In this document: piece after piece, positions 3,759-48,682 of the stretch
How the letters are laid out: every line of letters begins with the position of its first letter
How positions within the stretch are numbered: position 1 is the first letter of the stretch
IMG/VR virus record: IMGVR_UViG_3300014208_000007
Span: 1-62,041 of that record
Source of the DNA: a virus
Length of the DNA: 62,041 bases
Direction: 5' to 3' (one strand)
Translations under genes and position numbers: made by a program
Notes under the pieces: generated by a model
Told to the model about the DNA's origin: nothing
What the model saw: only the letters and a program-made list of their open reading frames with translations
The model's database searches: none

Positions 3759-3762
3759 CGGT

Positions 3763-27391: not shown

Positions 27392-27913
27392 TTAGTCCTC
27401 GGCCGTCTCGTACACGATGGAGATGTCCCCGGCGATCGCGGTGGTCGCCTGGGTGCCGATCTCGACCGCGATGATCCGATCCTTCGTGGTATCGACCCCG
27501 ACCGCGTGCGACGGGATCAGGGTAGCGGTGATCCCGCCGCGCCCGGCAGCCGAAGACCGGCCGATCGTGGCGGACGAGATGATCTCGTGCCCGGAAACAA
27601 GCGCCGGAGCGGTTCCGGTATCGGTCTGCCCACCGGAATCGTAGGCTGCCGCATTGGTCGCGGACGCCTCGGCCTCGTTGTAGTACGTGTTCAGGATACC
27701 AACATTCAGGACAACGGCCGTCCCGGTGTCGAGCGGGTCGACCTCGAGACGCAGGTCGTGGAGCCGGTGACCGGACGGCAGGATGCCGAGCGCCACGATG
27801 TTCCCGGTGACGTTCTGCGCCGCGGTGAGGGCGTGGGTCCTGTACTCCACGTTCGGACCGACCCCCGTTTTCGGCGGCTTCGTGTAGAGACTCGCTGCCT
27901 TGATGAGTGACAT
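27392..27913 (-). CDS. Head decoration / capsid accessory protein candidate, 173 aa
   Basis: Immediately follows the major capsid gene and has its own SD (AGGGAGGG). Beta-rich Thr/Ala/Gly composition. Confidence 0.5.
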   Translation of the reverse strand: MSLIKAASLYTKPPKTGVGPNVEYRTHALTAAQNVTGNIVALGILPSGHRLHDLRLEVDPLDTGTAVVLNVGILNTYYNEAEASATNAAAYDSGGQTDTGTAPALVSGHEIISSATIGRSSAAGRGGITATLIPSHAVGVDTTKDRIIAVEIGTQATTAIAGDISIVYETAED

Positions 27914-27970: not shown

Positions 27971-29080
27971 TTACGGCTTGGTCGACGCGGTGTCGATCGC
28001 CATCACGCCGAAGTCGTTCCCGTTGAAGGTCGTCTTCTTGACCCCGAAGATCGTGTGGGTCGAGATGATGATCTTGTTCCCGTTGTCCCGGGTCTCCTCG
28101 TTCCACCCGAACCGGAGATCCTGGCCCGGGGAACCGAACGCGACGACGGCGGCCTGCAACCCGCAGAAGAGCGCGCGGGTCGCCTCGATGGCGCCGGAGC
28201 CGTAGTCGGTGTACCGGATGCAGTTCTGGTGCTGTTGCAGGACGACGCCGTTCCAGATCCCCAGGCCGCCCTTGAAGAACTCGTTGTTCTTCCCGACGGA
28301 GGCGAGCAGGGCCTTCTGGATGTCGGCCCAATCCATCGACGTGGTGTTGCGGCGGAAGTTGTACGCCTGGTACCCGTCCATGACGCACAGGAACACGTCT
28401 TCCCCGTCGATGTTGCACTTCTGGAGCTGCGGAACCTCGGACGCCACCGGTCCGCCTCCGCCCATCATGTTGGCGTAGGCTACCGCCCGGTCGATCGGCA
28501 GGGTCGACATGGTGTCCGTCGCCGTGATGGACGCCTTCGACGTCGCCGTGCCACCGTACACGATGTGGTTGGTGTCCGGCGAGGTGAAGGAGTTGTTCCC
28601 GAACCCGGTGTACGTGGTCGGGAAGACGTACTCCGAGTTCGTCCCGCGGGCGCCCGACAGGTACATGAAGAAGATCTGGTCGAACACCCGGCCCCACCAG
28701 TCGGTCTCCCGGGCCTTGGCGATCTTCCGGAGGTCGTGCAGGGTCCGCTTGCGCGTCATCCGGCCGCCCGCGTCCGCACCGCCCCGCATCTGGTCGATGT
28801 AGACGTTGTCGGAGTAGAACTGCAGGGCCTCTTCCTTGCCGTGCAGCTCGGCGTCGCCCTCGATCGGCTGCATGTTGAGCTGCATGGACAGGTCGAAGGT
28901 GATCTGCTCGCCCGCGCCAGCCTCTAGATCCGTCAACTGCCAGATCGGCTTGGTCGGGACTTCGCCCTTGCCCATGAACTTCCGGGCCCAGAACCCTTTA
29001 CGTCCGACGTCGACCGCGAGGTTCCCGGAATACCTCTTGACGGCCTTGGCGTCGTTCAGACCGATGATCGTCTGCGCCAT
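27971..29080 (-). CDS. Major capsid protein (HK97 fold; resembles the N4 gp56-type family by recollection), 369 aa
   Basis: GGAGG SD. Downstream of the scaffold-like gene and followed by a terminator hairpin. Size and composition are typical of an MCP. Confidence 0.65.
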   Translation of the reverse strand: MAQTIIGLNDAKAVKRYSGNLAVDVGRKGFWARKFMGKGEVPTKPIWQLTDLEAGAGEQITFDLSMQLNMQPIEGDAELHGKEEALQFYSDNVYIDQMRGGADAGGRMTRKRTLHDLRKIAKARETDWWGRVFDQIFFMYLSGARGTNSEYVFPTTYTGFGNNSFTSPDTNHIVYGGTATSKASITATDTMSTLPIDRAVAYANMMGGGGPVASEVPQLQKCNIDGEDVFLCVMDGYQAYNFRRNTTSMDWADIQKALLASVGKNNEFFKGGLGIWNGVVLQQHQNCIRYTDYGSGAIEATRALFCGLQAAVVAFGSPGQDLRFGWNEETRDNGNKIIISTHTIFGVKKTTFNGNDFGVMAIDTASTKP

Positions 29081-29343: not shown

Positions 29344-30414
29344 TCACGCCCTCGCTGCGTAGGTGTCACGCTGTTCCTGCGTCATCCGTTCGAGTGCATC
29401 CTCGTATGCCTTGCCGGACAACTTGTCGATTGCCGCAAACCCGTCGTCGGTAGAGTTCGGCGCCGCCGCCGGCACGGTCCCGAGGGTCTTTACGTCGGGC
29501 ACGGTCGCCGGTGGTTTCCCGCCGTCCTTGGCCGCTGCCGCGGACGGAGTTGCCGCCTTCTTCCCCGGCGCCGGGATGCCGAACGCGCTTCGAACCGCCC
29601 GGTCGGCCGCGATCAGGATCGTCATCCCCGAGGCGTTGGTGTACTTCGGGTCGGATCCGATCCGGTTGACGGCCTTCCCGAACGCCCCGAACAGGAGCTC
29701 CGACCGTTCCGTAAACTTCCCGTCGACCTTCTCGAGGTATTCGGGACGCGCGCGGAGGAACTCCCCCTGTTCGACGTCCCACACCTTCTGCGCCCGGAGA
29801 GCGTCCCGGGCCTGCAACTGCATCTCTGTGACTTCCCGGTTAAGGGCGTCCCGCTCCCGGTTGTACTCCTTCAGTTCGACGTCCCCGGCGTCGTATTTCG
29901 CGTCCAAGGCGTCTAGTTTCGTCTGGATCTCCGGCGGGACGGTGTTCGGCAACTTGACCGAAAGTGCCGATTCGGGCGGTCGGAACGCCAGAAGATCCTC
30001 GTCCGACGGTAGGACGGTCTCTTCCGTTGCCGGGGGCGTGGCCGGGGGAGTTGCTGCCGCAGGTGCGGCCCCCTCGGCCCCAGGTGCCGGTGCCGCCGCT
30101 TCGCTTGCGGGCGTACCCGCTGCAGGCGGCTTTGTGGGTGCCCCATCCGTTGCCGGTTTCTCGGGAGACTTGCCTTCCCCCTCCGCGGCGATGGCCGCGA
30201 GTGCCTTCGGGTCGATCTCGAACTCGGCCGGGGTGACTTCTTCGTTACCTCCAACCTCCGGGTTGTCGATGGAATCCTTGATTCCCGCGCGCTCCGTCTC
30301 CGACAGTCCCGCCCACTCCTCGAGCGTGTACCCCTCGGGAGGCGAACCGGACGTGTCGACCGCCGGGGTCTCCGGCGCCTTGCCTTCGTCTTTCGTGTCC
30401 GTGGCTCCTGCCAT
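29344..30414 (-). CDS. Scaffolding protein candidate, 356 aa
   Basis: Internal ATG (MAGATDTKDEG). Acidic Ala/Pro/Glu-rich N-terminal half, then coiled-coil. Located upstream of the MCP. Confidence 0.5.
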   Translation of the reverse strand: MAGATDTKDEGKAPETPAVDTSGSPPEGYTLEEWAGLSETERAGIKDSIDNPEVGGNEEVTPAEFEIDPKALAAIAAEGEGKSPEKPATDGAPTKPPAAGTPASEAAAPAPGAEGAAPAAATPPATPPATEETVLPSDEDLLAFRPPESALSVKLPNTVPPEIQTKLDALDAKYDAGDVELKEYNRERDALNREVTEMQLQARDALRAQKVWDVEQGEFLRARPEYLEKVDGKFTERSELLFGAFGKAVNRIGSDPKYTNASGMTILIAADRAVRSAFGIPAPGKKAATPSAAAAKDGGKPPATVPDVKTLGTVPAAAPNSTDDGFAAIDKLSGKAYEDALERMTQEQRDTYAARA

Positions 30415-30584: not shown

Positions 30585-30845
30585 TTACTTCATCCCTTCC
30601 TTGCCCATCTTGATGAGCATTTCCGCTTCCTTCTTCTTGCCCTCGCTCTCGTCCATCTTCTCCTTGGCGAGAGCGCACGCCCGCTTCATCCGGGCCGGGT
30701 CCGCCTTGACGGCCATCGCCCGGGCCATCGCCCGGAGGTCGTCTTCGGCTTCCCACCGCTTCTGGTCTTCCACCATGTTCGAAGGCATGGTCGCAAGCGC
30801 CACGCCTCCGCCACCCTTTTTCTTCCGCTTCTTCTCGTACCCCAC
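30585..30845 (-). CDS. Small Lys/Glu/Ala-rich protein, 86 aa from the GTG (67 aa if the ATG at 30788 is used)
   Basis: C-terminal part of ORF 30585-31064 (…WEAEDDLRAMARAMAVKADPARMKRA…). The GTG at 30845 follows GGAAGAGG. Confidence 0.45.
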   Translation of the reverse strand: MGYEKKRKKKGGGGVALATMPSNMVEDQKRWEAEDDLRAMARAMAVKADPARMKRACALAKEKMDESEGKKKEAEMLIKMGKEGMK

Positions 30846-30859
30846 GGGACTGCCTCTTC

Positions 30860-31111
30860 CTACGACGTGGTGAGGGAGATGAGCTTCCCGCCGGCCAGGC
30901 CGATGTACAGGGTCCCGGAGTAGAGCGTCAGCGACAGGACCTTCTCCCCGACGTCCCGGATGTCCGTCAGGGCGCCGCTCGCCATGTTGTACTTCCGGAC
31001 CACGCCCTTGTCGGTGCCGAAGTACAGGTACCCGACGCCGCTCTCCACTACGGAGACGACGCACGTCACCTCGTTGCTCAGAACTTTCAGATCGGTCTTC
31101 GTTACGGTCAT
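30860..31111 (-). CDS. Small beta-rich hypothetical protein, 83 aa
   Basis: ORF with repeated hydrophobic/Gly beta-strand pattern (GYLYFGTDKGVV, GTLYIGLAGGKL). Confidence 0.6.
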   Translation of the reverse strand: MTVTKTDLKVLSNEVTCVVSVVESGVGYLYFGTDKGVVRKYNMASGALTDIRDVGEKVLSLTLYSGTLYIGLAGGKLISLTTS

Positions 31112-31141: not shown

Positions 31142-31729
31142 TCAGTACGCTACGGTGCGATGGAGCACGAATCCTTCGGCATGGTGGCCGTCTCCTGGTA
31201 TCAGCGATCCGAAAAAGCGGTTCTGCGCGACCATCGTCTCCATGAACTTCGGCCGCCGGGACATCTGCGATTCGAACAGGGAAACGAGTTTCTTCTTCGC
31301 CTCAATGTTGATAACGCTCAGGTAATTCGGGTAGTAGGAATGCGATGTCGTCACCAGATACCGAAGAACGGTGATCCGGACGTTGCGCGATACCGCGAAT
31401 CCCACCTGCGACGCTGCGTTGTGGTGCTGGTGGTAGTCGTGCTCGAACGGGAAGTAGAGGATCGTTGGTTGCACAGCGTCGAGGACGCAGACTTTCTCCT
31501 CGATCGACATGTCCGCGTCGAATAGGTGAACCACGCATCCGCCCAACATCCTCGAGGAATCCACCTGCTCGGATTGACGGACTACCGGATTAGCCGTCAG
31601 TTCCTCGTCCGCGTTCAGGATGGCGAGTACGATCTTGTCTCCCGCATCCCGGTGCTTCAGGAGGGTTCCCCCACAGCCGATCTCGATGTCGTCGATGTGC
31701 GCGCCGATGGCGAGGACTGTTTCGCTCAT
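31142..31729 (-). CDS. PIG-L/LmbE-family deacetylase, 195 aa
   Basis: N-terminal motif LAIGAHIDDIEIGCGGTL. Start overlaps the upstream stop (ATGA). The long ORF 31142-32671 has a junk N-terminal extension. Confidence 0.7.
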   Translation of the reverse strand: MSETVLAIGAHIDDIEIGCGGTLLKHRDAGDKIVLAILNADEELTANPVVRQSEQVDSSRMLGGCVVHLFDADMSIEEKVCVLDAVQPTILYFPFEHDYHQHHNAASQVGFAVSRNVRITVLRYLVTTSHSYYPNYLSVINIEAKKKLVSLFESQMSRRPKFMETMVAQNRFFGSLIPGDGHHAEGFVLHRTVAY

Positions 31730-32550
31730 CGCGCCACCTCTTCCCACGGCCGGTACATTCCATCCACCGGCGAATACCGGAACCGAATCCCGTTCCTGCG
31801 CAACTGGTTGCGGACGGCCTCCGTCGCCCCCGTCATAGGCCCCTCGATGATCCGACACCCGATGTCGAAGAAGGTCTCCCCGCACACTATGGCCGTGGTA
31901 CGCTCCATCTCCCGGACCGACACGCCTCGCAACTGCCCGAGGACTTCTTCGAGGCGGCTTGCGGACGGGTAGGCGTTCTCCTTCAGGACCTTGGCGGGGC
32001 ATCCGGCCGCCAGGCAACCGCTCGGCAGGTCGGAATTGATGAGAGACCGCGCGGCCACGACGACGTTGTCGCCGATCGTCACCCCGGGGTTGACCCAAGC
32101 GTTCGGCAGCCATACCCGGTTGCCGATCTTCACCGGCGCCCACTGTGCCGGGAATCCGAAATCTACCGGCAGGTACGCTCCATGCGTGAATATCTTCGTT
32201 TCGATGCCGATTCCGGCCTCGTGTCCGATCTCCACGCCTCGAGCGATGTTCACCTGTGAATTCCATCCCATGTGCAGCCAATCCCCTGCGTTCAGGAAGG
32301 CCCCTTCGTCGAAACACGACCCGCCGCCGATCCACGCGCCATGGTCCAGATACGATTCCCGGCCAAGGACGACCGAGTTCCCCTCCACCCTGGCGCCGGA
32401 CCGGATGATCGTCCGATCCCCGATGTGACCGCCGATGACGTTGAACACCGCCCCCGCCTCGATCAGCACGTCCGACCCGAACGTGCATCCCTTGAACCGG
32501 AATCCGGCCTCTATCTTCGTATCCCTCGTGAAGGTCATCCCGGTATTCAT
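31726..32550 (-). CDS. Left-handed beta-helix (hexapeptide-repeat) acyl/acetyltransferase, 274 aa
   Basis: Repeated [LIV]-G-x-x-x-x hexapeptides (IGDRTIIRSGARVEGNSVVLG, IGDNVVVAARS). The ATG at 32550 shares one nt with the upstream TGA. Confidence 0.7.
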   Translation of the reverse strand: MNTGMTFTRDTKIEAGFRFKGCTFGSDVLIEAGAVFNVIGGHIGDRTIIRSGARVEGNSVVLGRESYLDHGAWIGGGSCFDEGAFLNAGDWLHMGWNSQVNIARGVEIGHEAGIGIETKIFTHGAYLPVDFGFPAQWAPVKIGNRVWLPNAWVNPGVTIGDNVVVAARSLINSDLPSGCLAAGCPAKVLKENAYPSASRLEEVLGQLRGVSVREMERTTAIVCGETFFDIGCRIIEGPMTGATEAVRNQLRRNGIRFRYSPVDGMYRPWEEVAR

Positions 32551-33485
32551 CACTGCACCGCCACGGTCTGACACGCATCCACGCGCGTGCAGGGGAATCC
32601 GATTTCCTCGAACCGACCGGACTCAAGGCTATCCACCAGTACCCTTCGTGCTTTTGAGTTGGCAATTTCAAGGACCGACCGACGGTTCACGTTGCCCAGG
32701 ACCAGTTCGTTCCCCATGTCGTAGCAGCAGGCGTACCAGTCGCCGGTCGGATTGATGTAGGCGCAGTGACGAACCCGCTGGATGTTCGGGCACTTGAAGT
32801 CTCCCGACCTTGCCTCCTTACCGTACCGCTCTGCCCACAGGAGGGCGTTGTCCACTCCGATGAAATCCCCCGCCCTGAGACGATTTCCCCACGCCGCCAC
32901 GACGAGGTGGGCGTCAAACGGAGGAACCAATCCGTTACCCTTCCCGGGTGCGGACCCGTAGGACGCCACAACCGAATCGTGGTAGTTCTTGTACGGCATG
33001 GCGTGGATGCAGATCCGTACAGGAGACTTCATGACGTCCCGGATGGACAGGAACCTTCCGAGGTTCGCCGAAACGACGTCCAACGGTAGTTTCTTGACGG
33101 CACGATACGATTCTTCCGTTGCCCCGTCGATATTCACGTGGATGGCGTCGACCAGGTTCTCCCGCAAGACCGTCTCGGCGATCGATTCCCCCATGAGCGC
33201 GAAGTTGGAAAACAGGGATATCCCCAACCCGGCCCGGCGAGTCGCCCGGAGAATGTCCAGGATGTCGGGATTCAGGAAAGGCTCTCCGTTTTCCGACAGG
33301 ACGGAGTGGCATACCGGGTGCTGACGCTGAAACTCCGGCGTGGTGACCTCGGAGAGAACCTTCTCCACCAGAGACACCGGCATGTACCGATCCTCGACCG
33401 GCACCTTGACGAACGACCTCGGACAGAACACGCAATCCGCGTTGCAGATATTCGCCACGGCGAAGTTGATCTCCCTTATTTCCAT
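32550..33485 (-). CDS. Radical SAM enzyme with C-terminal SPASM/twitch-like Cys cluster, 311 aa
   Basis: CNADCVFC (CxxxCxxC) at residues 14-21. C-terminal CPNIQRVRHCAYINPTGDWYACCYD...GNV. The start (ATG at 33483-33485) overlaps the 3' end of the upstream gene by 10 nt (its stop is at 33476-33478). Confidence 0.75.
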   Translation of the reverse strand: MEIREINFAVANICNADCVFCPRSFVKVPVEDRYMPVSLVEKVLSEVTTPEFQRQHPVCHSVLSENGEPFLNPDILDILRATRRAGLGISLFSNFALMGESIAETVLRENLVDAIHVNIDGATEESYRAVKKLPLDVVSANLGRFLSIRDVMKSPVRICIHAMPYKNYHDSVVASYGSAPGKGNGLVPPFDAHLVVAAWGNRLRAGDFIGVDNALLWAERYGKEARSGDFKCPNIQRVRHCAYINPTGDWYACCYDMGNELVLGNVNRRSVLEIANSKARRVLVDSLESGRFEEIGFPCTRVDACQTVAVQ

Positions 33486-34480
33486 GGGACCACCTTCGTC
33501 ATCGCGTAGGCGAGTTCGTCGTCTATCGGCCGGACGATCCCCATGTCGATGGTCTGCCGCCGGATCTCTTCCGGGACAACCGCCTCCCACATGTCGTACT
33601 CTCGCCTCAACCACCACCAGAGTTTCGGAATGTCGAAGTCGTAGATGTTGTGCTTGTCGAAGTTGTGGGAGACCGTCCCGCCCCAATAGTGGATGAAGTA
33701 CGGATCCTCGAACGGGCCGACGAACGTGTGCTTGTGGGGAATCCCGGTCTCCTGCGCCTGCTCGTTCATGACCATGCCACCAGGCAGTCGTACGCATTCC
33801 CACTGCATCTCGCACCGGTTGAAGATCCAGTTGCCCGGCTCCGGCGTCCACTGCTCGACCTCCGGGAAGGGGTAGACGTTGCCGAAACCCCGGCACTCGG
33901 AGAACGGACCCCAATTTCCTTGAGGAATCAGCATACCGGCCGTGTGCGGGTACTCCGTGGCGAGGTTGATCCGCTTCGACATGTCCCGCCCGTAGCAGAC
34001 GGAGAGGTCCTTGTTGCGCAGGCACTCTTCTTTCAGGCTTTTCAGCACCGATGTACGGTAGAGCGCACCCGCGGGGCTGATGTAGTGGCGCCCGTCCTCG
34101 AATCCGGCGTCCCAATACCATCCCGCCATGGCTACGAAATCGTCTTTCACGTGCGACAGCATCCAGTCGAGCCACCCGTCCCGCATCGCCCGAACGTCGG
34201 TCTCCCAGGACAGGAACCACGGGGTATCGACGAGGTCGATCGCGTGATCCAGCGCGAGCTGATGGCCGGTGTTGACCAGATCCTTCGACGGAACCACCCG
34301 TACCTTCTCTCCGTAGGGCGTCTCGGTGATCCCACGGATCGACGGGTTGCCGATGGGGCTGTTGTCGACGATCAGGATGTCCATATCGGCGTCGTTCCTG
34401 TGTTGCAGGAGCGACTGGACGGTGATCTGCGTCCATCGGACGGTATAGGCGTGTGGGATGACGCACGTGACGGCCTTCAT
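33476..34480 (-). CDS. GT-A-type glycosyltransferase-like protein, 334 aa
   Basis: N-terminal VIPHAY...DILIVDNS pattern. ATGA overlap with the upstream methyltransferase. Confidence 0.55.
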   Translation of the reverse strand: MKAVTCVIPHAYTVRWTQITVQSLLQHRNDADMDILIVDNSPIGNPSIRGITETPYGEKVRVVPSKDLVNTGHQLALDHAIDLVDTPWFLSWETDVRAMRDGWLDWMLSHVKDDFVAMAGWYWDAGFEDGRHYISPAGALYRTSVLKSLKEECLRNKDLSVCYGRDMSKRINLATEYPHTAGMLIPQGNWGPFSECRGFGNVYPFPEVEQWTPEPGNWIFNRCEMQWECVRLPGGMVMNEQAQETGIPHKHTFVGPFEDPYFIHYWGGTVSHNFDKHNIYDFDIPKLWWWLRREYDMWEAVVPEEIRRQTIDMGIVRPIDDELAYAMTKVVPWK

Positions 34481-35040
34481 AGCGCCCCCTCCACCAGAAA
34501 CACCCCCGTTTGGATGTAGGGAACGACCCACAGCGGATCGAATACGATCTGCAGTTCCGCCATCGTCCAGTCGTGCCGGTGCTGATTCAGGGGATTCTCG
34601 ACCCATTCTTCGGCGCATTGCCGGTATCCGGTCGACCACTCCCGCCCCTCGACCTTGACCGGAAGCGCCCCCCACAGGAACCGACACCCGCCCGTCAGTC
34701 CACGCACCACCTCCACCGCCTCGATCATCTCCAGATGCTCGAGCACGTCGCCACAGATGATGACGTCGTAGGGTTCGAGCCGATGGTACGCGCCACGGAT
34801 ATCCTCCAGGAAGATCCGGTCGTACTTCTTCAGGAGGTTGTACCGGACGACGTATTCGGCGAACCCCTCTACCGCATCGACCTGCACTTCCCGGCCGAAC
34901 ACCTCCCGGATGATGTCCCCGTACAGGCCGGCGCCGCATCCGACGTCCAGAAACCGCTTGAATCCGAGCGGCTTGGCGACGTGGATCAGCCAGTCCTTGA
35001 AGAATCCCTTCCCCTCTTGCGCCGAGAACGCCATTACCAT
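34477..35040 (-). CDS. Class I SAM-dependent methyltransferase, 187 aa
   Basis: Motif I FLDVGCGAGLYG and post-I/II DVIICGDVLEHL. Start overlaps the 3' end of the upstream GT2 gene by 7 nt (ATGGTAATG; GT2 stop TAA at 35034-35036). Confidence 0.75.
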   Translation of the reverse strand: MVMAFSAQEGKGFFKDWLIHVAKPLGFKRFLDVGCGAGLYGDIIREVFGREVQVDAVEGFAEYVVRYNLLKKYDRIFLEDIRGAYHRLEPYDVIICGDVLEHLEMIEAVEVVRGLTGGCRFLWGALPVKVEGREWSTGYRQCAEEWVENPLNQHRHDWTMAELQIVFDPLWVVPYIQTGVFLVEGAL

Positions 35041-35816
35041 GTACCCCACTGGTCCCACTCGCGCAGGACGTAGTCGGGCCATTCGAAGGCGATCTCTTCC
35101 GCGTTTCCCATGTTCGCGCCCGAGTTGTACCAGGCCGGGAACATCGTCGGGGGATGGTAGGGCGGGCCCGGAGGCGCCTTCTCGCCACCTTCCTGCCAGA
35201 ACGCGACCGCTTTCGGGCCGAACGTCCGATGCAGGTGGATGTTGCAGACGCCCGGCAGCCACAACTGCGGCACCGGATCGGGCGACAGTACCGGATGGAA
35301 CCGCACGAAAGCGGGATTGGAGACGTACTTCACGCCCATCCCCGCCCGCCACAGCTGCGTATGCGGATCGACGAACGGGACCCCGGCGGGACTGACCTCG
35401 ATCGCCGATGGATGGACGGACCGATGCGTCCGGGAGATGAACCGATCGCCGGCCACGCGGACTGCGTTGACGTCCGACAGATCCCGGGTTTCGAGCGACC
35501 GGAAGAAATGCTCGGTGTAAATCTCGTCGGCGTCGAGTTTCAGGATCCAGTCCGGCTTGAATATCCTCTCGCACTCTTCCACCGCGATGGTCCGATATCG
35601 GGGCTCGTTGTACTCCTTGTCGAACCGAGGAAGGCCGGTGTTGATGAAGTCCGCGACGATCTTGTCGCACGCCATCGCCCGAATCGCCTGCACCGTACCG
35701 TCGGTCGATCCCTGATCCTGGATGTAGACCCCGACGACGTGCGGCAGGACGCTTCGCAACGCCATCTGCACGTAGAACGCATCGTTCTTGACCACCATGA
35801 ACGCCGCAATCCTCAT
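35034..35816 (-). CDS. Family 2 glycosyltransferase, 260 aa
   Basis: MVVKNDAFYV...IQDQGSTDGT and a DxD-like KLDADE. ATGA overlap with the upstream GT9 gene. Confidence 0.7.
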   Translation of the reverse strand: MRIAAFMVVKNDAFYVQMALRSVLPHVVGVYIQDQGSTDGTVQAIRAMACDKIVADFINTGLPRFDKEYNEPRYRTIAVEECERIFKPDWILKLDADEIYTEHFFRSLETRDLSDVNAVRVAGDRFISRTHRSVHPSAIEVSPAGVPFVDPHTQLWRAGMGVKYVSNPAFVRFHPVLSPDPVPQLWLPGVCNIHLHRTFGPKAVAFWQEGGEKAPPGPPYHPPTMFPAWYNSGANMGNAEEIAFEWPDYVLREWDQWGTW

Positions 35817-36904
35817 TTGAATCCTCCTGTTTCCTTCACCGCATTCGTTATGCGGTCTGGGGTTATGAGTTCCATGCACTTCACCGATTTGCCGGGATCA
35901 CTGGAGCACGGATGCAGGTCCCAACACGGGACACACTTGATCTCGCCCACCGGGTAGATGGGGCGGACGGTCGGATAGTAGGAGCACCGAGTCCGCGGGT
36001 TGATGTTGCCGAACAGCGCCACAGTCGGCTTACCCAAGGCCGCGGCGATGTGCAGCGATCCGGTATCCGGGGTGACCACGACGTCGGACAAGGACAGAAG
36101 GGCGATCATCTCGTCCAACTCCGTCCGGTCGATCAGGTTGACCGTGCCATACACCGACAAGTCTTTCAGGTCCCGATTCCACGATTGCGAAGAGCCGAAC
36201 AGGACGACACCGAGTCCGAGGTTCGCCAGTTTCCGGCACAGCGGGCGGACGTATTTCGGGGGAATGGAGCGTGCCGAGGCGACCATGCAGGCGTTCACAG
36301 CCACCACCCTGAGGCCCTTCAGGTCGGAAAGAAGGGCGTCAACCTTCTTCAGGGCTACGGTGGATACCGGAACCTCGAACATCTTGCGCGCCGGGTAGAC
36401 TCCGAGCAGTTCGTCGAAGGAATCCGACCGGTCCTTCGTCGTGTAGTCGGTCCATGTTCCCTTGCAGGTCTGCCCGAGTTCCTTCGGCTCGACCGCGAAT
36501 CTCAGGTCGATTACCTTGTCGAATTTGAACCGGCCGATGTCCTGAATCTTGATTACCCGGCAGGCAATTCCGAGAGACAACATAAAGGCCGTGTATTGTG
36601 GCAGGGTAGCGACCGTTACCTTCTCCCCGCGACGGACCATCTCCCGCAGTCCGGACGACAGCATCGCCAGGTCGCCAAGTCCGCCCATCCGGATGACGAG
36701 CGTTCCCGGGATCTTCTTCTGCCGCACGAACTCGCGCACTTCGTAGACGTTGATATTCAACGAGGATCCTGCGGACACTTCCTCGCTGATCGGCAGGCAC
36801 ATGATCTTCTTCTCTCCGTGTGTCGCACCGAAGAAGCCCTGCGCGACATTCCGGGAAATGCTCAAGGCCTTGCCGTTGGCCTGGTTGACGATCTCGTAAC
36901 TCAT
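35813..36904 (-). CDS. Family 9 glycosyltransferase (heptosyltransferase-like), 363 aa
   Basis: LVIRMGGLGDLAMLSSGL and DTGSLHIAAALGKPTVALFG are GT9 hallmarks. ATGA overlap with the portal stop. Confidence 0.7.
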   Translation of the reverse strand: MSYEIVNQANGKALSISRNVAQGFFGATHGEKKIMCLPISEEVSAGSSLNINVYEVREFVRQKKIPGTLVIRMGGLGDLAMLSSGLREMVRRGEKVTVATLPQYTAFMLSLGIACRVIKIQDIGRFKFDKVIDLRFAVEPKELGQTCKGTWTDYTTKDRSDSFDELLGVYPARKMFEVPVSTVALKKVDALLSDLKGLRVVAVNACMVASARSIPPKYVRPLCRKLANLGLGVVLFGSSQSWNRDLKDLSVYGTVNLIDRTELDEMIALLSLSDVVVTPDTGSLHIAAALGKPTVALFGNINPRTRCSYYPTVRPIYPVGEIKCVPCWDLHPCSSDPGKSVKCMELITPDRITNAVKETGGFK

Positions 36905-39129
36905 TGGCCGTCCACCGAAGGCTCCGACAACTGCCGGGGAGGCGCGAAACCGTTCCCGCCGCCGATGGTTTGCGAATCCGCTATAAGAGCGTCTGCTGCC
37001 GAGACGATACCGGGGGCGCTCGCCACCGCACCGGCCGCCTCCATCGCCTTCAGGTACCCGTCGAGCTTCTTCATCTGCGCGTCGACCGTGTTTTTCAGGG
37101 CTTGCGCACTTTGATTCGATGCGTTCGCATTCGCAACGGCGACCTGCGCTTGCAGGAGGGCGGTTTGCAACGCCTTGAGCATCTGCGCTTCCTGCCCGGC
37201 TTGCGCGTCTTGAGCCTTCGCCGCCTCCTTCTCCTCCGGCGTTATGTCTTCATCCGGAGACCGCTGCCCGCTGATCTTCCGGATCCGGGCCATGATCTCG
37301 TCCTTGTTCGGCAGGTCGTCCATCATGTCGACGGCGAGGTCCAGGATCGCCAGACCGACGTTCGCCTGCCCGGACTGCGCCAACCCGAGGATCAGGTCGG
37401 TGAGCATCTGCAACATCGTGAGGCGTAACGTCTCCCGGAAGTCCTGCTTGGTGACGATGAAGTCCGCCTTGACGTCCTGCATGGAATTCTTCACCGATCC
37501 GTCGGGTTGCGGCTCGTTGACCGTCAGGAAGTCGTCCTTCTGCCGATCGCCGGTGATCCGGAATTCCATCATCCCGTCGATGAACTGCTCGATGAGCGAC
37601 ACCTTGATCTCGCCGCCGCTTTGGAAAGCGTAGTAATAGTTGTCGAAAAAGACTCCCGAGGTGGTGTGCCCCTGCAACTGAATCGCCTCGATCGCCTTAC
37701 CCGACAGGTCCTTGCGTACCGTGCCCTTGTTCTCTGGGGTGACGCCAGAGATTCCCTCGATGAATCGCTCGTCGTCCCGCGCCAGTTCGACGTGCTCCCG
37801 GGCAAGCACGATGTCCTTCTGCGACTGGACCTTGTTGCTGGTCAGGGCGCCGTTCGCCACCTCCGCCATACCGTCCGGCCGGTTGTTCTCGTCGTAGAAC
37901 TTGACCGGATCGTCGATCGCGCCCCTCTCGTACCAGACCTTGTTGGCCGTCAGGAGCACCAGCGCGCGCGACCGGCGCTTGTTCAGGTCGGACTGCGGGT
38001 CCCGGATGTCCCTGATGACGCCGTAGGGCATTCCGTTCCGCTGCATCCGGTAACAGAACATCGGGACGAACGGGAACTGATCGTGGTTGTAGGGCGACAG
38101 GACGTCCTGGAGGTAAGTCGACCCGGCCCACACCGCACACCGCACCGTCATGCGCTTCTGCGGTACCAGGTCGAAGTACCCGCCCCGGACGAGGTACTGG
38201 TGATCGGAGTGCGTCGGCCGGAAGATCGTTCCATGCAGGGCGCCGTAGGGCGTATCGGTGTCCCGCATTCTCATCACTTCGACGTTGGCCGGCATCCGGT
38301 ACCACATCTCGACCGGCTTGATCCGCTTGCGGTTCGTGTCGAACGGACCGCCGAACATCGAATCGATATCGCTCTCCATGTCGAATTCGGAGGCCAGATC
38401 CGTCGTCACCATCTCGTCCGGCATGTACGGGTAGAGGGAGTTGACGCCTTCGGCCAACACCCGCAACGCCTCCGCGCGCTCCGGGAACATCTCGCTGATG
38501 ATGTCCAGGTCCGCCCACTTCGACCGGATGACGTATCGCCAATCGCTGCCGTCGTTCGAACTGCCGAGGTGGTCGAACCACATGTTCCGCCACTTCTCGG
38601 ACCGCTCGAAGATCGGACACCCGTCGACGCCGGACTGCGCGCCGAACTCCATCCACCCGAGCCCCGCCTTGACTGCCGACTCGAACGCCCAGGACCGGTG
38701 ATACTCGCCCTTCGACGAGTCCTGCACGTATTTCATCACCTGCGTCTTGCTCTTCGCTCCCTGCGCGCCCTTCTTCTTCCGCGGCAGCACCCGGTAGTCG
38801 ATCCGGTTCTTCCGCTCGACGCCCAGGATCCAGTTCACCGTGTTCTTCACGACGTTGAACGCGAGGACGGGCTGATTCCGGTCCATCAGCGTCCGGACGT
38901 CCTCCGCCTCCATCTGGATCCCGTCGTAATAATCCTCGTCGATCGCCATCTCCGTCCGGTTGTCGGCCTGCGCAACCCGCGCCTGCCGGTACCACTGCTG
39001 CAACCGGTGGAGCCGATCCTGCCATTCCTGCGCCTCGAGGGGATGGGACAGGCCGGAGGACGCGACAACGGCGTTCGCAGCGGCCATATCCGCCTTCGGG
39101 CGCTTCTCTCTGCGGGTCGGTAGGGCCAT
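36901..39129 (-). CDS. Portal protein candidate, 742 aa
   Basis: Size and position downstream of TerL. Coupled start. Call is by synteny only. Confidence 0.55.
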   Translation of the reverse strand: MALPTRREKRPKADMAAANAVVASSGLSHPLEAQEWQDRLHRLQQWYRQARVAQADNRTEMAIDEDYYDGIQMEAEDVRTLMDRNQPVLAFNVVKNTVNWILGVERKNRIDYRVLPRKKKGAQGAKSKTQVMKYVQDSSKGEYHRSWAFESAVKAGLGWMEFGAQSGVDGCPIFERSEKWRNMWFDHLGSSNDGSDWRYVIRSKWADLDIISEMFPERAEALRVLAEGVNSLYPYMPDEMVTTDLASEFDMESDIDSMFGGPFDTNRKRIKPVEMWYRMPANVEVMRMRDTDTPYGALHGTIFRPTHSDHQYLVRGGYFDLVPQKRMTVRCAVWAGSTYLQDVLSPYNHDQFPFVPMFCYRMQRNGMPYGVIRDIRDPQSDLNKRRSRALVLLTANKVWYERGAIDDPVKFYDENNRPDGMAEVANGALTSNKVQSQKDIVLAREHVELARDDERFIEGISGVTPENKGTVRKDLSGKAIEAIQLQGHTTSGVFFDNYYYAFQSGGEIKVSLIEQFIDGMMEFRITGDRQKDDFLTVNEPQPDGSVKNSMQDVKADFIVTKQDFRETLRLTMLQMLTDLILGLAQSGQANVGLAILDLAVDMMDDLPNKDEIMARIRKISGQRSPDEDITPEEKEAAKAQDAQAGQEAQMLKALQTALLQAQVAVANANASNQSAQALKNTVDAQMKKLDGYLKAMEAAGAVASAPGIVSAADALIADSQTIGGGNGFAPPRQLSEPSVDGQ

Positions 39130-39987: not shown

Positions 39988-42516
39988 TCACTGACTCCTC
40001 CATGACGATCCTCGTTTGACCTTCGCCCGCCAGTCCTTGCCCTTCGGCGACACCTTGACCGTGCAGATCGAGGCGTTGACCACCGCGTCCCCGTCGTCTG
40101 GCGACCGCCCAAGGCGCTTCTTGATGCCGGGCCCGTCCGGCCCGTCTTCCTTCGGCTCGACGAGGATCCCGCCCGGCGTCAGCTTCCACATCGGCGCGCA
40201 CAGGTCGGCGCGCAACTGCGAGTCGTTCGGCAGCGCGATGTTGTCGCCGATCTTCGGGTCCAGCGACTCCCTGAACCGCCACCAGAGCATCGCCCGCTTG
40301 TTACGGAACTTGAGGCGATTCGTCATCTTGTCCGTCTGGCCCTCGACGCCCTCCCGGTCCCCGCCGTTGACCGCAACGACCTGGACATCGTTCGATTCGA
40401 GGTGATCGACCACCGACCCGCCCACGCCCACGACGTCGACGTGGACAGGCGCCCCGTCCCGTCGGTTGGCGACCACCAGCCCCGCGGTCGTGCCCCCGTC
40501 CGGCGTTTCAGCACCCGGATACCGCTTCAGGGGCGCGTACCAGGTCCCGTGCCGCATCGCCAGCACGGTCTTGTCCTTGCCTCCGCGCGCCACGTCCACA
40601 CCCATCGAGTCCATCGGCCTGCCGAGACCGCCCTCCGGCGTCCACCGGGCCATCGCCGCATCGATCCACGCCGTCGGGATCACCTGCCACGCCGAATCCT
40701 CCGTGCCGGCCTTGAAGTCCCCGCGGAGCATCTGCGACCGGAGCGGCTCGGGCAACGCCTGGAGCTGCGCGACGTACCCGGACGACATCAGGAACGCATT
40801 GTCCTGGACCTTGGAGGGGATGAACGTGCGGCTTTGCGGCTGGATCGTCTCGCCGTTGTGGACGAACAGCGCACCGTCGGGGCGCTCGATCTCCTCCCCG
40901 TCGATCATGGCGTACCACCGCAACTCGCCCGGCTTGGCGGGGTTCGGGTGCTTGTCGTCCAACCATGGGGCCCAGAACTTGACGACCCACTGCCCGTCCT
41001 GATTCGTCGGGGGATTCCCCGCGCACACCACCCGGCACCGCTGGCCGGGGGTCGTGGTGCGCAACCACCCCGCGAGGAATCGGAACTGCTGCTCAAAGAA
41101 GTGAGTTATCTCATCAAAGCAATTCTTGTTGACAAATCCGGCCCCTGTTATATAATGATTGACGGATTCAACAGTTAAATCGAATAATTCTGTCTCGGGG
41201 AGGTCTGAAAATGACACCAAAGCAGGAGAAACATCAGCCTGTGTTTGACGTCTTTCCATCGTATAAGGGTGGTCGTACCACCGAATACGGTGGATACGTC
41301 TGGGAAGAACTCCCGGGGCACCACCTGCAAAACCTTTGGGGATACGTCGCCCAACATCGCCTTGTGGCCGAAGACATATTAGGGCGCGAACTCCTGCCGG
41401 GGGAGACGGTCCACCATATCGACGAGTGCCGATCGAATAATTCACGGGAGAACCTTGTGGTAATGGGAACGACGGCCCACCGCCGATACCACGCGAGGAA
41501 GGCGGGTCTTGCAAGCCGCTCGCCGATAACGCGAAAGATGGTACGGGAAGCATTGCGGTCAGAAGGTGGGATAAAGCCCGCCGCGCGGCTCCTGAAAGTC
41601 TCTCATTCCACACTTCGCGGAAGATATCCTGGGCTTTGTAAGCCGTATCAGCGGACCAGCCCAACGGTGATCGACAACCCGAGAGATATTGACATAGTGC
41701 TCGCAGCCGCCCCGGATCCAAAGATCGGACTCCGGGAGATAATGGCGGCCGCCCATATGTCGGCGATGACGATCCTTCGGATATGCAGGCGGCGCGGAGT
41801 GACGTGGGTGAAAAAGACAAAGGCCGGGGAGATTCATAGAACGTATCGCGGGAAGCCCACCCGTCGGTCGTTAGAATCGAGTGATTCCGACTCTGCACCT
41901 GCTGGCCGATAACGCGACCATTGATCGAAGCGGACACCAACGCCGCCGGTTTACTGACAACGTGAAGCTGTGATACGCGACGAGAACCCTCGAGCGTATC
42001 AACAAGATCCCCAACCTTCACGTCCTCGACGGGTTTCCACGATCCGTCGGCCATCCACACAGGCGTCCCGCGCCCAACGCAAATCAAGTCGTGCGGCCGC
42101 CCCTGGTACCGGATCTCGTCGCCGAGGTCCTTACACGACCCGAGCTCCACCTGCCGCCCGAGTTTCGGCAGGCGCCACACGTGCTCCTGCCCGTTGTACC
42201 CGTCCCGCGTGCCGAGGACTTCCGTGGTCCGGTCGATGATGGCGAGGAGTTGCGTGCCTTCCCGCCTGAAGATGATCGACCGCCGGTGCTGAGTCAGTGC
42301 CAACCCGATCAGCAGGTCCGTCTTGCCGCCGCCGGCCGCGCCGCCGTAGTAGACGATGTCCGCTTCGGACTCAAACGCAAGCGTTTGCGGCCCGGGCTGT
42401 GGAACCCATATCGGTTGCTCCGCCGCAAGGATCCCGTCCACCTCGGCCATCTCCGCGGGGGTGAGGAAACGCAGCACGGACGCCAGTTCGGCGATCTGTG
42501 CCGCTGCGCCGTTCAC
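39988..42516 (-). CDS. terL: Terminase large subunit, 842-aa precursor containing a 320-aa intein (522 aa after splicing)
   Basis: Walker A YYGGAAGGGKTD. Walker B is split as HDLI|intein|CFDEITHF. ATGA overlap with the TerS stop. Confidence 0.8.
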   Translation of the reverse strand: MNGAAAQIAELASVLRFLTPAEMAEVDGILAAEQPIWVPQPGPQTLAFESEADIVYYGGAAGGGKTDLLIGLALTQHRRSIIFRREGTQLLAIIDRTTEVLGTRDGYNGQEHVWRLPKLGRQVELGSCKDLGDEIRYQGRPHDLICVGRGTPVWMADGSWKPVEDVKVGDLVDTLEGSRRVSQLHVVSKPAALVSASINGRVIGQQVQSRNHSILTTDGWASRDTFYESPRPLSFSPTSLRAACISEGSSSPTYGRPPLSPGVRSLDPGRLRALCQYLSGCRSPLGWSADTAYKAQDIFREVWNERLSGAARRALSHLLTAMLPVPSFALSASGLQDPPSSRGIGGGPSFPLPQGSPVNYSIGTRRYGGPSPPAGVRALICLRPQGDVGRRIPKGFAGGAPGVLPRRIHRIRWYDHPYTMERRQTQADVSPALVSFSDLPETELFDLTVESVNHYITGAGFVNKNCFDEITHFFEQQFRFLAGWLRTTTPGQRCRVVCAGNPPTNQDGQWVVKFWAPWLDDKHPNPAKPGELRWYAMIDGEEIERPDGALFVHNGETIQPQSRTFIPSKVQDNAFLMSSGYVAQLQALPEPLRSQMLRGDFKAGTEDSAWQVIPTAWIDAAMARWTPEGGLGRPMDSMGVDVARGGKDKTVLAMRHGTWYAPLKRYPGAETPDGGTTAGLVVANRRDGAPVHVDVVGVGGSVVDHLESNDVQVVAVNGGDREGVEGQTDKMTNRLKFRNKRAMLWWRFRESLDPKIGDNIALPNDSQLRADLCAPMWKLTPGGILVEPKEDGPDGPGIKKRLGRSPDDGDAVVNASICTVKVSPKGKDWRAKVKRGSSWRSQ
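41129..41156 (+). promoter_or_regulatory. Consensus sigma70-type promoter for the HNH gene (TTGACA-N16-TATAAT)
   Basis: TTGACA at 41129-41134 and TATAAT at 41151-41156, followed by GGGGAGG at 41197-41203 and the ATG at 41211. The hexamers are formed by the antisense of intein codons FVN and NHYI. Confidence 0.6.
41211..41912 (+). CDS. HNH homing endonuclease with C-terminal HTH-like regions, 233 aa, encoded antisense inside the TerL intein
   Basis: GYVAQHRLVAEDILGRELLPGETVHHIDECRSNNSRENLVVMGTTAHRRYH is a canonical HNH motif. Has its own SD and promoter. Confidence 0.75.
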   Translation: MTPKQEKHQPVFDVFPSYKGGRTTEYGGYVWEELPGHHLQNLWGYVAQHRLVAEDILGRELLPGETVHHIDECRSNNSRENLVVMGTTAHRRYHARKAGLASRSPITRKMVREALRSEGGIKPAARLLKVSHSTLRGRYPGLCKPYQRTSPTVIDNPRDIDIVLAAAPDPKIGLREIMAAAHMSAMTILRICRRRGVTWVKKTKAGEIHRTYRGKPTRRSLESSDSDSAPAGR

Positions 42517-46126: not shown

Positions 46127-46621
46127 TTATTTCAACGCGATATATTTTCCGTCAAAGCCTGACGCCTTGAGGCGTTGCGCGTTGATCTCGCCGTAGGCGA
46201 TCAGGACCGAAGGGCCCCCGGCGTTGTAACCCGATCGTCTTCCGTCAGCATGATAGAAGTTCAGGCGACCGGCGAAGAAAAATAGCGCATCAGCGGCGCC
46301 CCACACGAACCGATGGAACATATCCGTTTCCGTCCGGGCGAACGTAAGGGCGATTCCGTTGCCGTGTTGCGCAAGGCGGGCAAGCCATACTTTCGTTTTC
46401 TGTCCGTAGGGGGGATTCATCCAGACGCGACCCGTCCAATCCTTCTTCAACCCGTTGTCGAGGACCGTAAAGTGCTCCCTTGCGGTAGACCACGGACGCA
46501 TTATGCTGGCGCATGGGTCGAGATCGAACGGCCCAAGAGCTTCGATGATCTCCGGGGGAGTCAGCCATTCCTCCTTGAGCGCACAAGCAGACTGATGCCC
46601 GCCGATCCCTCGCCTTGTCAC
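46127..46621 (-). CDS. dam: Phage-type DNA N6-adenine methyltransferase, 164 aa
   Basis: EWLTPPEII...FDLDPCA and the catalytic VWMNPPYG motif. Confidence 0.8.
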   Translation of the reverse strand: MTRRGIGGHQSACALKEEWLTPPEIIEALGPFDLDPCASIMRPWSTAREHFTVLDNGLKKDWTGRVWMNPPYGQKTKVWLARLAQHGNGIALTFARTETDMFHRFVWGAADALFFFAGRLNFYHADGRRSGYNAGGPSVLIAYGEINAQRLKASGFDGKYIALK

Positions 46622-48294: not shown

Positions 48295-48522
48295 CTACTC
48301 GTTCCGGGCGATCGAGGCATTCGCCCACATGACGCACTCTTCGAGGGCCGTCAGCGCGAGCGACCGCTCCCGGGAGGGCGGGCAGTCCGCCATGATGTCG
48401 GTTGCGAACTTCTTGGCGACCGTCCGAAGGAACTCGTACCGCGCCGCCTGACCTCCCTTCGGCGGGTGATACGTGAAGTCCTTCTTCAGGCGGGCTTGGT
48501 CTACGTCGGTGATCGGGTACAT
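48295..48522 (-). CDS. Acb2/Tad1-hairpin-like small protein (candidate cyclic-nucleotide sponge), 75 aa
   Basis: AAAGGAG SD. FTYHPPKGGQAARYEFLRTVAKKFATDIMADCPPSRERSLALTALEECVMWANASIA matches the F-x-YH-x-P ... SRE-x-SLA ... MWANA-x-IA pattern I recall for this family. Confidence 0.4.
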   Translation of the reverse strand: MYPITDVDQARLKKDFTYHPPKGGQAARYEFLRTVAKKFATDIMADCPPSRERSLALTALEECVMWANASIARNE

Positions 48523-48682
48523 GTGGCTCCTTTCGATTGGTGTTGGGCGGCGGCAGGATTGGATACCTGCCTGTGCAGTGGGGCCGATGCGCCCCTCACT
48601 GGCACGGGAGCAGGGCGCTCCGTGCTTTGCAAGACATCGGCCTTCCATCCCCGGTGCGCCGGGGCCGCGCCGCCCTTTCGGT

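Follow-up and report, generated by a model that had tools for sequence, protein, structure and literature searches.

What purpose could a set of sugar-modifying enzymes serve in the middle of the head genes of a bacteriophage? This question is raised by the DNA of IMG/VR record IMGVR_UViG_3300014208_000007, which we analysed over its entire length of 62,041 bp (hereafter the window) and which covers all, or almost all, of the genome of a podophage that has not been cultured. Between the portal and scaffold genes of this phage lies a cassette of seven genes (g1 to g7), which are predicted to encode three glycosyltransferases together with methyltransferase, radical S-adenosylmethionine (SAM), acyltransferase and deacetylase tailoring enzymes. 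We propose, with a rough probability of 0.6, that the cassette would be a late-expressed cytoplasmic system that glycosylates a phage head protein and then tailors the attached glycan. Since the cassette family appears only in phages and resides among head genes, a glycan of the phage's own making probably covers proteins of its particle. In the order of transcription the genes are as follows.

35813..36904, minus strand: g1, GT9-family GT-B glycosyltransferase, 363 aa (PF01075 Glyco_transf_9, 63.3 bits against a cutoff of 22)
35034..35816, minus strand: g2, putative GT2-like (GT-A) glycosyltransferase, 260 aa (invariant D95-A96-D97, a DXD motif)
34477..35040, minus strand: g3, class I SAM methyltransferase, 187 aa (Methyltransf_12 30.8 bits, Methyltransf_11 23.5 bits, phrog_3382; motif I FLDVGCGAG)
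33476..34480, minus strand: g4, second glycosyltransferase of GT-A fold, 334 aa (AlphaFold model with a pLDDT of 93)
32550..33485, minus strand: g5, radical SAM protein with a SPASM-type Cys cluster, 311 aa (PF04055 36.5 against 29.5 bits; PF13186 35.7 against 21.5)
31726..32550, minus strand: g6, hexapeptide-repeat acyltransferase with a left-handed beta-helix, 274 aa (PF00132 Hexapep 44.3 against 27 bits)
31142..31729, minus strand: g7, PIG-L/LmbE-family de-N-acetylase, 195 aa (PF02585 41.5 against 28.2 bits)

The seven genes follow the portal gene on the minus strand (36904..31142), and every junction is an overlap. The overlap is 4 nt long (ATGA) at portal/g1, where the TGA stop of the portal gene overlaps the ATG of g1, and at g1/g2, g3/g4 and g6/g7; it is 1 nt (TGATG) at g5/g6, 7 nt at g2/g3 and 10 nt at g4/g5. 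The starts of two genes could be placed differently: an ATG two codons downstream in g3 (35034), which is the choice of the ENA gene caller, would give 185 aa and a 1-nt overlap, and an upstream GTG in g6 (32574) would give a 25-nt overlap. The overlaps persist under either choice. Long antisense open reading frames (ORFs) are typical of DNA with 60% GC, and a codon-usage model trained on the phage structural genes picked exactly the seven minus-strand frames over them. The synonymous codon usage of all seven genes was within the range of the other genes of the phage, which rules out recent horizontal acquisition; thus, the cassette is no recent arrival. No membrane helix was predicted in the cassette proteins (no 19-residue window had a Kyte-Doolittle hydropathy above 1.6), and no flippase, polymerase, polyprenyl-phosphate (bactoprenol) transferase or integral-membrane acyltransferase was found in the cassette.

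The original prediction, drawn from the same DNA, had named the seven enzyme families in this order, had given an overlap of these lengths at every junction and had set the cassette directly after the portal stop. Profile searches and the structural model of g4 agreed with the families, the junction sequences matched exactly, and the shared portal stop and g1 start confirmed the position. The cassette was also said to be inserted between portal and scaffold. This holds in substance, although the two are not strictly adjacent on the downstream side, as g7 is followed by a 30-nt spacer and two small genes, p83 (83 aa) and p86 (86 aa), before the scaffold gene is reached. Furthermore, the cassette was claimed to be co-transcribed with the head genes. 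A sequence scan found no same-strand promoter-like or terminator-like sites inside the cassette, which fits with co-transcription but falls short of proof.

None of the seven proteins reached any NCBIfam functional equivalog cutoff, and therefore we treat them as superfamily members and not as orthologues of named enzymes. Their catalytic motifs are intact and are conserved across homologues with 35-80% identity. In g1 the PF01075 match is confined to the C-lobe (residues 211-305), and the homologues carry invariant RMGGxGD and PDTGxxH motifs. The GT-B two-Rossmann fold of the g1 model (predicted local distance difference test, pLDDT, 90) superposed on WaaC/WaaF in Foldseek, where the matches were WaaF/1psw at 3.4e-15 (template modelling score, TM, 0.62-0.67), WaaC, 3tov, 6dfe and TibC at 6e-11. 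The protein also has a beta-rich N-terminal domain of about 60 residues and a C-terminal four-Cys knuckle, C324-x2-C327-x5-C333-x9-C343. The former (residues 1-60) is modelled as four to five strands at a pLDDT of 50-80 and is missing from the short family members P0106-P0111, and the cysteines of the latter, which lie in a loop that precedes the final helix, show little or no variation. All comparisons with equivalogs of lipopolysaccharide (LPS) heptosyltransferases failed: g1 scored 58.8 against 134.6 bits for TIGR02195, 44.9 against 185.3 for TIGR02193 and 40.2 against 569 for NF008162.

For g2 the Pfam matches remained below threshold (PF13704 23.1 against 27.5 bits, with PF00535 and CgtA also under the cutoff), and among the PHROGs it matched phrog_13126, a beta-1,4-glycosyltransferase, at 7e-7. 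A further profile match of g2, to the Listeria flagellin O-GlcNAc transferase GmaR (4e-4), would agree with a protein acceptor but is too weak to rely on. For g4 no Pfam match was obtained, and some of its homologues carry a precomputed PF00535. Foldseek matched the g4 model to SpsA (5e-8) and TarP (1e-6), with a GT-A core of about 180 N-terminal residues and an unmatched C-terminal half; D95 and D113 are invariant among the homologues. Sequence-only searches of the PDB with g4 and g5 were uninformative.

The invariant cysteines of g5 comprise C14-x3-C18-x2-C21 and the C-terminal auxiliary C232, C253, C254, C299 and C305. A profile search with g5 gave weak matches only, to TYW1-like enzymes, BtrN (9e-4) and anSME. 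The nearest cellular relative of g5 (33% identity) is encoded by an Elusimicrobia metagenome-assembled genome (MAG) in a locus with NeuB, a CMP-sugar synthetase, DegT aminotransferases, Wzz and an epimerase. As this is a locus of the nonulosonic-acid/O-antigen type and not one for ribosomally synthesised and post-translationally modified peptides (RiPPs), it supports a sugar role for g5. The reading of g5 as a RiPP or peptide maturase was set aside as the main one on this ground and on two others: no conserved precursor-like peptide was present, and the peptide and cofactor maturase equivalogs all failed (the best, TIGR04317, at 58.7 against 380 bits, the others lower). The sub-threshold matches of g6 included WcaF, WbbJ, the maltose and galactoside O-acetyltransferases and the NeuD/PglB sugar acetyltransferases. 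In g7 the metal-binding and catalytic motifs AHIDD and HxxH-type are present ('AIGAHIDDIEIGCGG', 'GAHIDDIE', 'HDYHQHH'), and the score for the BshB1 equivalog was 61.7 bits, which does not reach its cutoff of 182.5.

The distribution of g1 indicates that its clade is essentially phage-only. Clade members scored from 816 down to 191 bits, after which a gap followed to 55 bits, the level of the bacterial LPS heptosyltransferases. When one genome per species was searched by pattern plus tblastn, the clade was detected in 2 of 185,579 bacterial and archaeal species, and both matches were short MAG contigs bearing phage scaffold and capsid genes. At the same time, none of the 50,697 GenBank phages carried a member of the g1, g4 or p83 families. 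The homologues formed 57 clusters for g4 (all metagenomic), 54 for g1 and 39 for g5, and the g1 and g5 sets consisted almost entirely of unnamed metagenomic proteins. In IMG/VR, pattern scans with the single g1 and g4 proteins gave no matches, and a scan based on alignments had to be used. Proteins of GT9 fold and similar structure that are assigned to 'uncultured Caudovirales phage' are present in the BFVD database, with automatic names that include RfaF, GT9 and 'Aah/TibC'; none of them is characterised.

The labels under which such proteins have been deposited deserve a separate remark. The exact g1 and g5 proteins are present at NCBI as 'Candidatus Peribacteraceae bacterium' MAG proteins (P0058, P0128), and related phage contigs (L048, L049) have been binned as Patescibacteria and Verrucomicrobiota. 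As these taxa conflict with each other and the contigs carry head genes, the entries probably represent mis-binned phage DNA. The automatic label 'ADP-heptose:LPS heptosyltransferase' is probably misleading for the g1 clade.

We compared the portal-scaffold interval of the window with that of related phages, as the original prediction had suggested, and the cassette was missing there in Burkholderia phage Bcep22, Ochrobactrum phage POI1126 and the IMG/VR phage L006. The portal gene of Bcep22 and POI1126 stands immediately before a scaffold-like gene of about 320 aa, after which come small genes and the capsid gene. L006, whose portal is 55% identical, is the closest cassette-less relative with visible flanks; there the portal stop overlaps a 74-aa ORF, which is followed by ORFs of 100 and 121 aa and the scaffold gene. 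Since relatives lack the cassette between portal and scaffold, we consider it an accessory block at a variable site. Within the clade that shares the Phage_capsid_3 type of major capsid protein the interval is empty in L001, L002, L006, L009-L012, L017 and L018, and it holds GT9 and a methyltransferase alone in L038-L040 and L049, or a GT2-like gene, a methyltransferase and GT9 in L036. Sets with GT9, two glycosyltransferase-like genes, methyltransferases, a hexapeptide transferase and PIG-L that lack the radical SAM gene occur in L025, L029, L031, L033 and L034; the L025-type phage, with a cassette of 7 genes, turned up in 44 index blocks. All genes of the set, that for the radical SAM enzyme included, are present in the window, L019, L021 and L032, and some of the full-set loci contain extras (Methyltransf_24, a second GT9, a pyruvyl transferase and homing HNH genes). 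Across the family, the smallest cassettes pair GT9 with a methyltransferase and the largest hold more than 12 tailoring genes; GT9 is their constant element. The original prediction had named the combination of enzymes as one not known at this locus. Full-text searches found neither a cassette of this kind nor GT9 genes within the head modules of phages described in the literature, but the combination is not unique to the window, as it recurs in this family of phage cassettes.

In the Bcep22/SU10-like clade the cassettes occupy the portal-to-scaffold interval of the window, L019, L021, L025, L028-L040 and L049. In L022 and L027 the cassette stands after the major capsid gene, in L026 (with a sulfotransferase) after a Phage_capsid_4 capsid gene, in L042, a phage with 39% GC, after the prohead protease and a phrog_752 capsid gene, and in L044 between the large terminase (TerL) and portal genes. 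In the siphophage L023, a GT1 gene and genes resembling g4, g5 and PIG-L separate a capsid gene of the lambda-E type from the tape measure gene. GT9 is found within the head or packaging module, at differing positions, in at least six phage lineages. As a rough estimate, if the module makes up about a quarter of the genome, six independent placements in it would occur by chance with a probability of about 0.25^6, or about 2e-4.

Two kinds of interruption were seen in the loci of these relatives. HNH_3 homing-endonuclease genes lie inside or at the edge of the cassettes of L019 (11895-12455), L021 (about 8468-8986) and L025 (16923-17372, minus strand), and they may help cassettes to move or recombine. 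In addition, the major capsid gene is split into two to four separated pieces with intervening ORFs in L021 (16996-20402), L022 (3058-5428) and L032 (15374-16697), which suggests introns, inteins or mobile insertions.

How could the seven enzymes work together? On the reading we favour, g1 would prime the glycan in the cytoplasm by placing the first sugar, plausibly a heptose from the ADP-heptose pool of the host, on a Ser or Thr of a head protein. The chain would then be lengthened by g2 and g4 with UDP-sugars, including an N-acetylhexosamine, from which g7 would strip the N-acetyl group to leave a free amine. An acyl group would be attached by g6 and a methyl group by g3, and g5 would oxidise, epimerise or dehydrate a sugar by radical chemistry, so that the particle would end up with an oligosaccharide coat specific to the phage. 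Close relatives differ strongly in gene content, which suggests that diversifying selection acts on a glycan exposed at the surface, as is the case with O-antigens. The original prediction had likewise argued for glycosylation of virion proteins or of another late target, and it draws support from the apparently phage-exclusive GT9 clade and its residence in the head modules of at least six lineages. Homology did not place the genes in a known nucleotide-modification or O-antigen conversion pathway.

Several observations weigh against virion glycosylation. The link between the cassette and a virion protein rests on gene position, that is, on guilt by association, and phage structural operons are classic landing sites for unrelated 'moron' genes. 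The g1 model is no nearer to the protein-glycosylating TibC (TM 0.55-0.60) than to WaaF and 3tov (0.62-0.65), and the Cys spacing differs between g1 and TibC. A comparison of the Ser/Thr columns in the capsid and decoration proteins of phages with and without GT9 revealed no signature of an acceptor site; since the GT9-less L006 shares the columns, they carry no acceptor signal and track phylogeny. The tally of at least six lineages with head-module placement leaves out the distant GT9 homologues L024 and L045-L047. Finally, the phage and all of its cassette-bearing relatives are uncultured.

Virion glycosylation as such is textbook knowledge for eukaryotic viruses. To our knowledge, among tailed phages it has been shown so far only in some actinobacteriophages, where it acts as a shield against antibodies, and otherwise in giant viruses. 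In the chlorovirus PBCV-1, virus-encoded, cytoplasmic enzymes that do not depend on the endoplasmic reticulum build an unusual methylated oligosaccharide on the major capsid protein. Unlike the cassette, PBCV-1 is a eukaryotic giant virus whose enzymes belong to other families, act N-linked at atypical sequons and are encoded by scattered genes. Its capsid glycosyltransferase is mentioned in a study of phage DNA glycosylation (bioRxiv 10.1101/2023.12.21.572611). Closer to the window phage are mycobacteriophages of cluster F1 and others (Che8, Rita, Myrna, Corndog), for which virion glycosylation was shown by Freeman et al. (2023, Cell Host Microbe 31:1216), as cited in PMC11256854, PMC12619734 and PMC13313380. 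According to these citing papers, glycosyltransferases of the phage, in many cases accompanied by a methyltransferase, are believed to modify the capsid or tail proteins late in infection, while these are in the host cytoplasm, and so to form a glycan shield, and the minimal GT9 plus methyltransferase versions of the present family follow the same two-enzyme logic. The two systems also differ. The transferase genes of Maravista and the Che8-type phages are located near the 3' end of the genome, outside the head module, the hosts are actinobacterial, the enzymes are not GT9, and no radical SAM, PIG-L or hexapeptide tailoring is described. Moreover, glycosylation was demonstrated experimentally in the mycobacteriophages, whereas for the window phage it is read from the genes. 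We infer, therefore, that the process would be a known one, virus-encoded cytoplasmic virion glycosylation, and that the new elements would be the enzyme family, the genomic wiring, the phage groups and a much richer tailoring chemistry.

An enzyme comparable to g1 in its proposed action is TibC, a bacterial autotransporter heptosyltransferase (BAHT) whose GT9-like GT-B core acts on protein Ser in the cytoplasm with ADP-heptose (PMC4358343). TibC has an N-terminal beta-barrel (residues 1-97) and, in the C-lobe, a four-Cys iron finger formed by C339, C342, C358 and C370 (PMC4358343). BAHT enzymes (TibC/AAH) and g1 have in common a GT9-like core, and the predicted beta-rich N-terminal domain and the four-Cys knuckle of g1 may correspond to the beta domain and to the four-Cys finger that stands in the C-lobe shortly before the C-terminal helix; this parallel lends some support to the idea of a protein acceptor. 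The TibC structures 4rb4 and 4rap also gave the longest Foldseek alignments with g1 (391-416 columns, 6e-11 to 3e-9). On the other hand, the spacing of the cysteines is C-x2-C-x15-C-x11-C in TibC and C-x2-C-x5-C-x9-C in g1, the proteins are 406 and 363 aa long, respectively, and no sequence-level match of g1 to TibC was found. The short members of the g1 family are without the N-terminal domain, and a BAHT gene adjoins that of its autotransporter substrate, whereas the neighbours of g1 are phage head genes. Given that g1 resembles TibC no more than it resembles WaaF, we do not class it as a BAHT. WaaC/RfaC and WaaF/RfaF are the best matches of g1 in sequence and structure and share the GxGD and DTGxxH motifs with it; however, the sequence alignment is limited to the C-terminal lobe, and g1 has in addition the N-terminal domain and the Cys4 knuckle.

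This resemblance to WaaC and WaaF raises the possibility that the target is the host envelope. In that case g1 would be an LPS heptosyltransferase that acts on the lipid A-core at the inner membrane face, with the other enzymes as tailoring functions, and the late change in LPS could, for example, stop progeny from adsorbing to debris or exclude competitor phages. The matches of g1 to RfaF/WaaF and WaaC, as well as the polysaccharide O-acetyltransferases WcaF and WbbJ among the best sub-threshold matches of g6, are in agreement with this idea, and the cultured relatives of the phage infect Gram-negative bacteria that make heptose-containing LPS. We nevertheless regard it as unlikely: g1 is far under every LPS heptosyltransferase equivalog cutoff, its clade is missing from cellular genomes, the cassette contains no membrane-associated or export components, and the repeated independent placement in head modules of at least six lineages would be left unexplained. 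Besides, known phage LPS-conversion genes are expressed from lysogens, whereas the cassette genes are translationally coupled to the portal gene. A scan of 48 proteins from across the window detected no integrase or repressor domain, a result that speaks against lysogenic conversion. Systems of the gtrABC/Oac type for lysogenic O-antigen conversion rely on a membrane flippase, a bactoprenol transferase or an integral-membrane acyltransferase encoded near an integrase, and the cassette shows none of these. The acceptor could instead be the phage genome, with the transferases glycosylating a modified base and the remaining enzymes tailoring the sugar to shield the DNA from restriction. Two facts make this worth considering: a gene for a C5-cytosine methyltransferase is present in the phage (56495-58024, plus strand; 509 aa with two matched stretches, PF00145 6.5e-58), and phage GT-A and GT-B enzymes can build mono- and disaccharides, including heptose, on 5-hydroxymethylcytosine (bioRxiv 10.1101/2023.12.21.572611). 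The window also contains a Dam-like N6-adenine methylase (46127-46501, minus strand), and TarP, which is among the matches of g4, is listed as a top structural homologue of the DNA-modifying GT-A enzymes as well (bioRxiv 10.1101/2023.12.21.572611). The hypermodification clusters described there (Pyle et al., bioRxiv 10.1101/2023.12.21.572611 / Cell Rep 2024) resemble the cassette in that accessory sugar enzymes accompany phage GT-A and GT-B enzymes, which draw on the nucleotide sugars of the host, heptose and Kdo among them. They differ from it in their tailoring enzymes, and the text of that study does not mention a radical SAM enzyme, a deacetylase or an acetyltransferase. The known transferases cluster with a C5-methyltransferase and a 5mYOX/TET or ThyS-like hydroxymethylase (bioRxiv 10.1101/2023.12.21.572611), whereas the methyltransferase of the window phage lies 20 kb from the cassette, on the other strand and in the early region, and the 48 scanned window proteins contained no TET/JBP/5mYOX, thymidylate-synthase-like or hydroxymethylase domain. 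In addition, T4 beta-glucosyltransferase was not among the top 50 structural matches of g1, and the position of the cassette in the head module would have no explanation; a role in DNA hypermodification is thus very unlikely.

Another way to account for the cassette is as cargo unrelated to the virion, a 'moron' pathway that makes a soluble glycoside or aminoglycoside-like metabolite or glycosylates a host protein or a small phage protein or peptide outside the head, with p83, then a non-structural factor, as a possible target. The combination of glycosyltransferase, PIG-L and radical SAM enzymes does recall the pathways for mycothiol, bacillithiol and 2-deoxystreptamine aminoglycosides. The support for this parallel from the search tools was limited to the BtrN match of g5 at 9e-4 and the BshB1-like match of g7. 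Structural operons tolerate inserted cargo genes, and some cassette versions have homing HNH genes scattered among the others. These points are outweighed, in our opinion, by the fact that the clade is phage-exclusive and has been kept in head modules across unrelated lineages, by the absence of aglycone or precursor-synthesis genes from the cassette, and by its fully phage-adapted codon usage and translational coupling to the portal. Moreover, the minimal versions consist of GT9 and a methyltransferase, which is too little for a metabolite pathway and makes one unlikely. Cargo unrelated to the particle is therefore a highly improbable explanation.

If a head protein is indeed glycosylated, as we favour, candidates for the acceptor are the major capsid protein, the decoration-like protein of 173 aa and p83. 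The genes concerned and their neighbours in the head module are the following.

36901..39129, minus strand: portal gene, 742 aa, P22_portal type (PF16510; relatives with 38-40% identity)
30860..31111, minus strand: p83, 83 aa, two beta-propeller blades (profile matches to 'Cake' propellers and BamB; G+C content at third codon positions, GC3, 0.94, like the major capsid gene)
30585..30845, minus strand: p86, an 86-aa ORF between p83 and the scaffold gene
29344..30414, minus strand: scaffold-like gene, 356 aa (homologous to genes after the portal in L006, L019, L025 and others)
27971..29080, minus strand: major capsid protein, 369 aa, Phage_capsid_3 (PF13252; GC3 0.94)
27392..27913, minus strand: virion protein, 173 aa (phrog_8455, virion structural protein)

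In the Phage_capsid_3 lineages p83 stands directly after the last glycosylation gene in every GT9 locus, including L022, L027 and L041, where the cassette is located elsewhere. Three-blade versions of p83 were found in L022, L027 and the GT9-less L006, and a profile scan of IMG/VR with p83 re-found only the same contigs. The protein may be an acceptor, a glycan-binding decoration or a plain backbone head gene. A wider picture can be drawn tentatively, and we hold it to be rather doubtful: many uncultured tailed phages with several unrelated head types would wear a strain-specific, O-antigen-like glycan coat, begun by a phage-exclusive, protein-directed GT9 and diversified by swappable tailoring sets, with p83 as a glycan-bearing decoration or a lectin-like anchor. 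Such sets may include methyl, acyl, sulfo and pyruvyl transferases, de-N-acetylases and sugar radical SAM enzymes.

If the proposed reading is correct, virion glycosylation would be a recurrent, modular trait of phages related to the podophages of Burkholderia, Ralstonia, Erwinia and Ochrobactrum. A cassette that varies like an O-antigen locus and is wired to head assembly would bear on the stability of the particle, its adsorption and its sticking to mucus or biofilm matrix, and also on immune recognition in phage therapy. It would affect the annotation of metagenomic 'auxiliary' glycosyltransferases, which are now labelled as LPS heptosyltransferases and whose contigs are binned into bacterial MAGs. 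The phage-only GT9 clade and the sugar-acting radical SAM/SPASM clade would represent new enzymology, and the cassette would offer a compact toolkit for glyco-engineering of capsids.

Judged by its proteins, the phage is a distant relative of the Bcep22/SU10-like group. Its portal shares 38-40% identity with the portals of Burkholderia phages Bcep22, BcepIL02 and JC1, Ralstonia phages, Ochrobactrum phage POI1126 and Erwinia phage Stean. At the DNA level no match to a phage genome was obtained among 50,697 GenBank phage records, and the relatives were detected at the protein level only. Independent assemblies of the same genome exist as contigs of about 62 kb in JGI metagenome 3300037810 and ENA ERZ27249449, and a partial one in the Logan assembly. 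The late genes form one long minus-strand operon, which extends from about 42.9 kb to about 0.1 kb and carries in this order TerL, portal, cassette, scaffold, Phage_capsid_3 major capsid, SU10-type adaptor, a giant protein of 4,156 aa, Mtd_N tail fibre and M15 endolysin; the early and replication genes occupy the plus strand at 50-61 kb.

Several other features of the genome were recorded. The giant 4,156-aa ORF (6433-18903, minus strand) contains a SNF2/ResIII-type helicase core at about residues 2217-2744 and presumably encodes a giant virion or ejected protein, as in Bcep22-like phages. A 117-aa protein (48295-48648, minus strand) has an Acb2/Tad1 hairpin domain (PF24729, 6e-18) and is likely a nucleotide sponge directed against the CBASS or Thoeris defences. 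The tail-fibre-like protein encoded at 5403-6338 on the minus strand carries an Mtd_N domain, known from the major tropism determinant of Bordetella phage BPP-1. A diversity-generating retroelement near this gene was considered and rejected, as neither a reverse transcriptase nor a template/variable repeat pair was found nearby; the sole repeat found there is a 53-nt tandem-like repeat within the gene itself. At the end of the late operon (1291-3854) the GC content is lower (0.53-0.54 compared with about 0.60), and two minus-strand ORFs of 569 and 285 aa in this region have atypical codon usage and gave no Pfam or PHROG matches. They may be recently exchanged tail-fibre or receptor-binding genes.

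The large terminase gene (39988-42516, minus strand) is a single ORF of 842 aa with an in-frame insertion of about 319 aa in comparison to the intact TerL of L019. The insertion starts with 'C-VGRGTPVW', finishes with 'FVNKN|C', matches a Hint domain and is intein-like. Antisense to its Pro/Ser-rich middle lies a 233-aa ORF for an HNH_3 endonuclease (41211-41912, plus strand), preceded by a perfect TTGACA-16-TATAAT promoter (41129-41156, plus strand). The insertion may thus be an intein whose homing endonuclease is encoded antisense.

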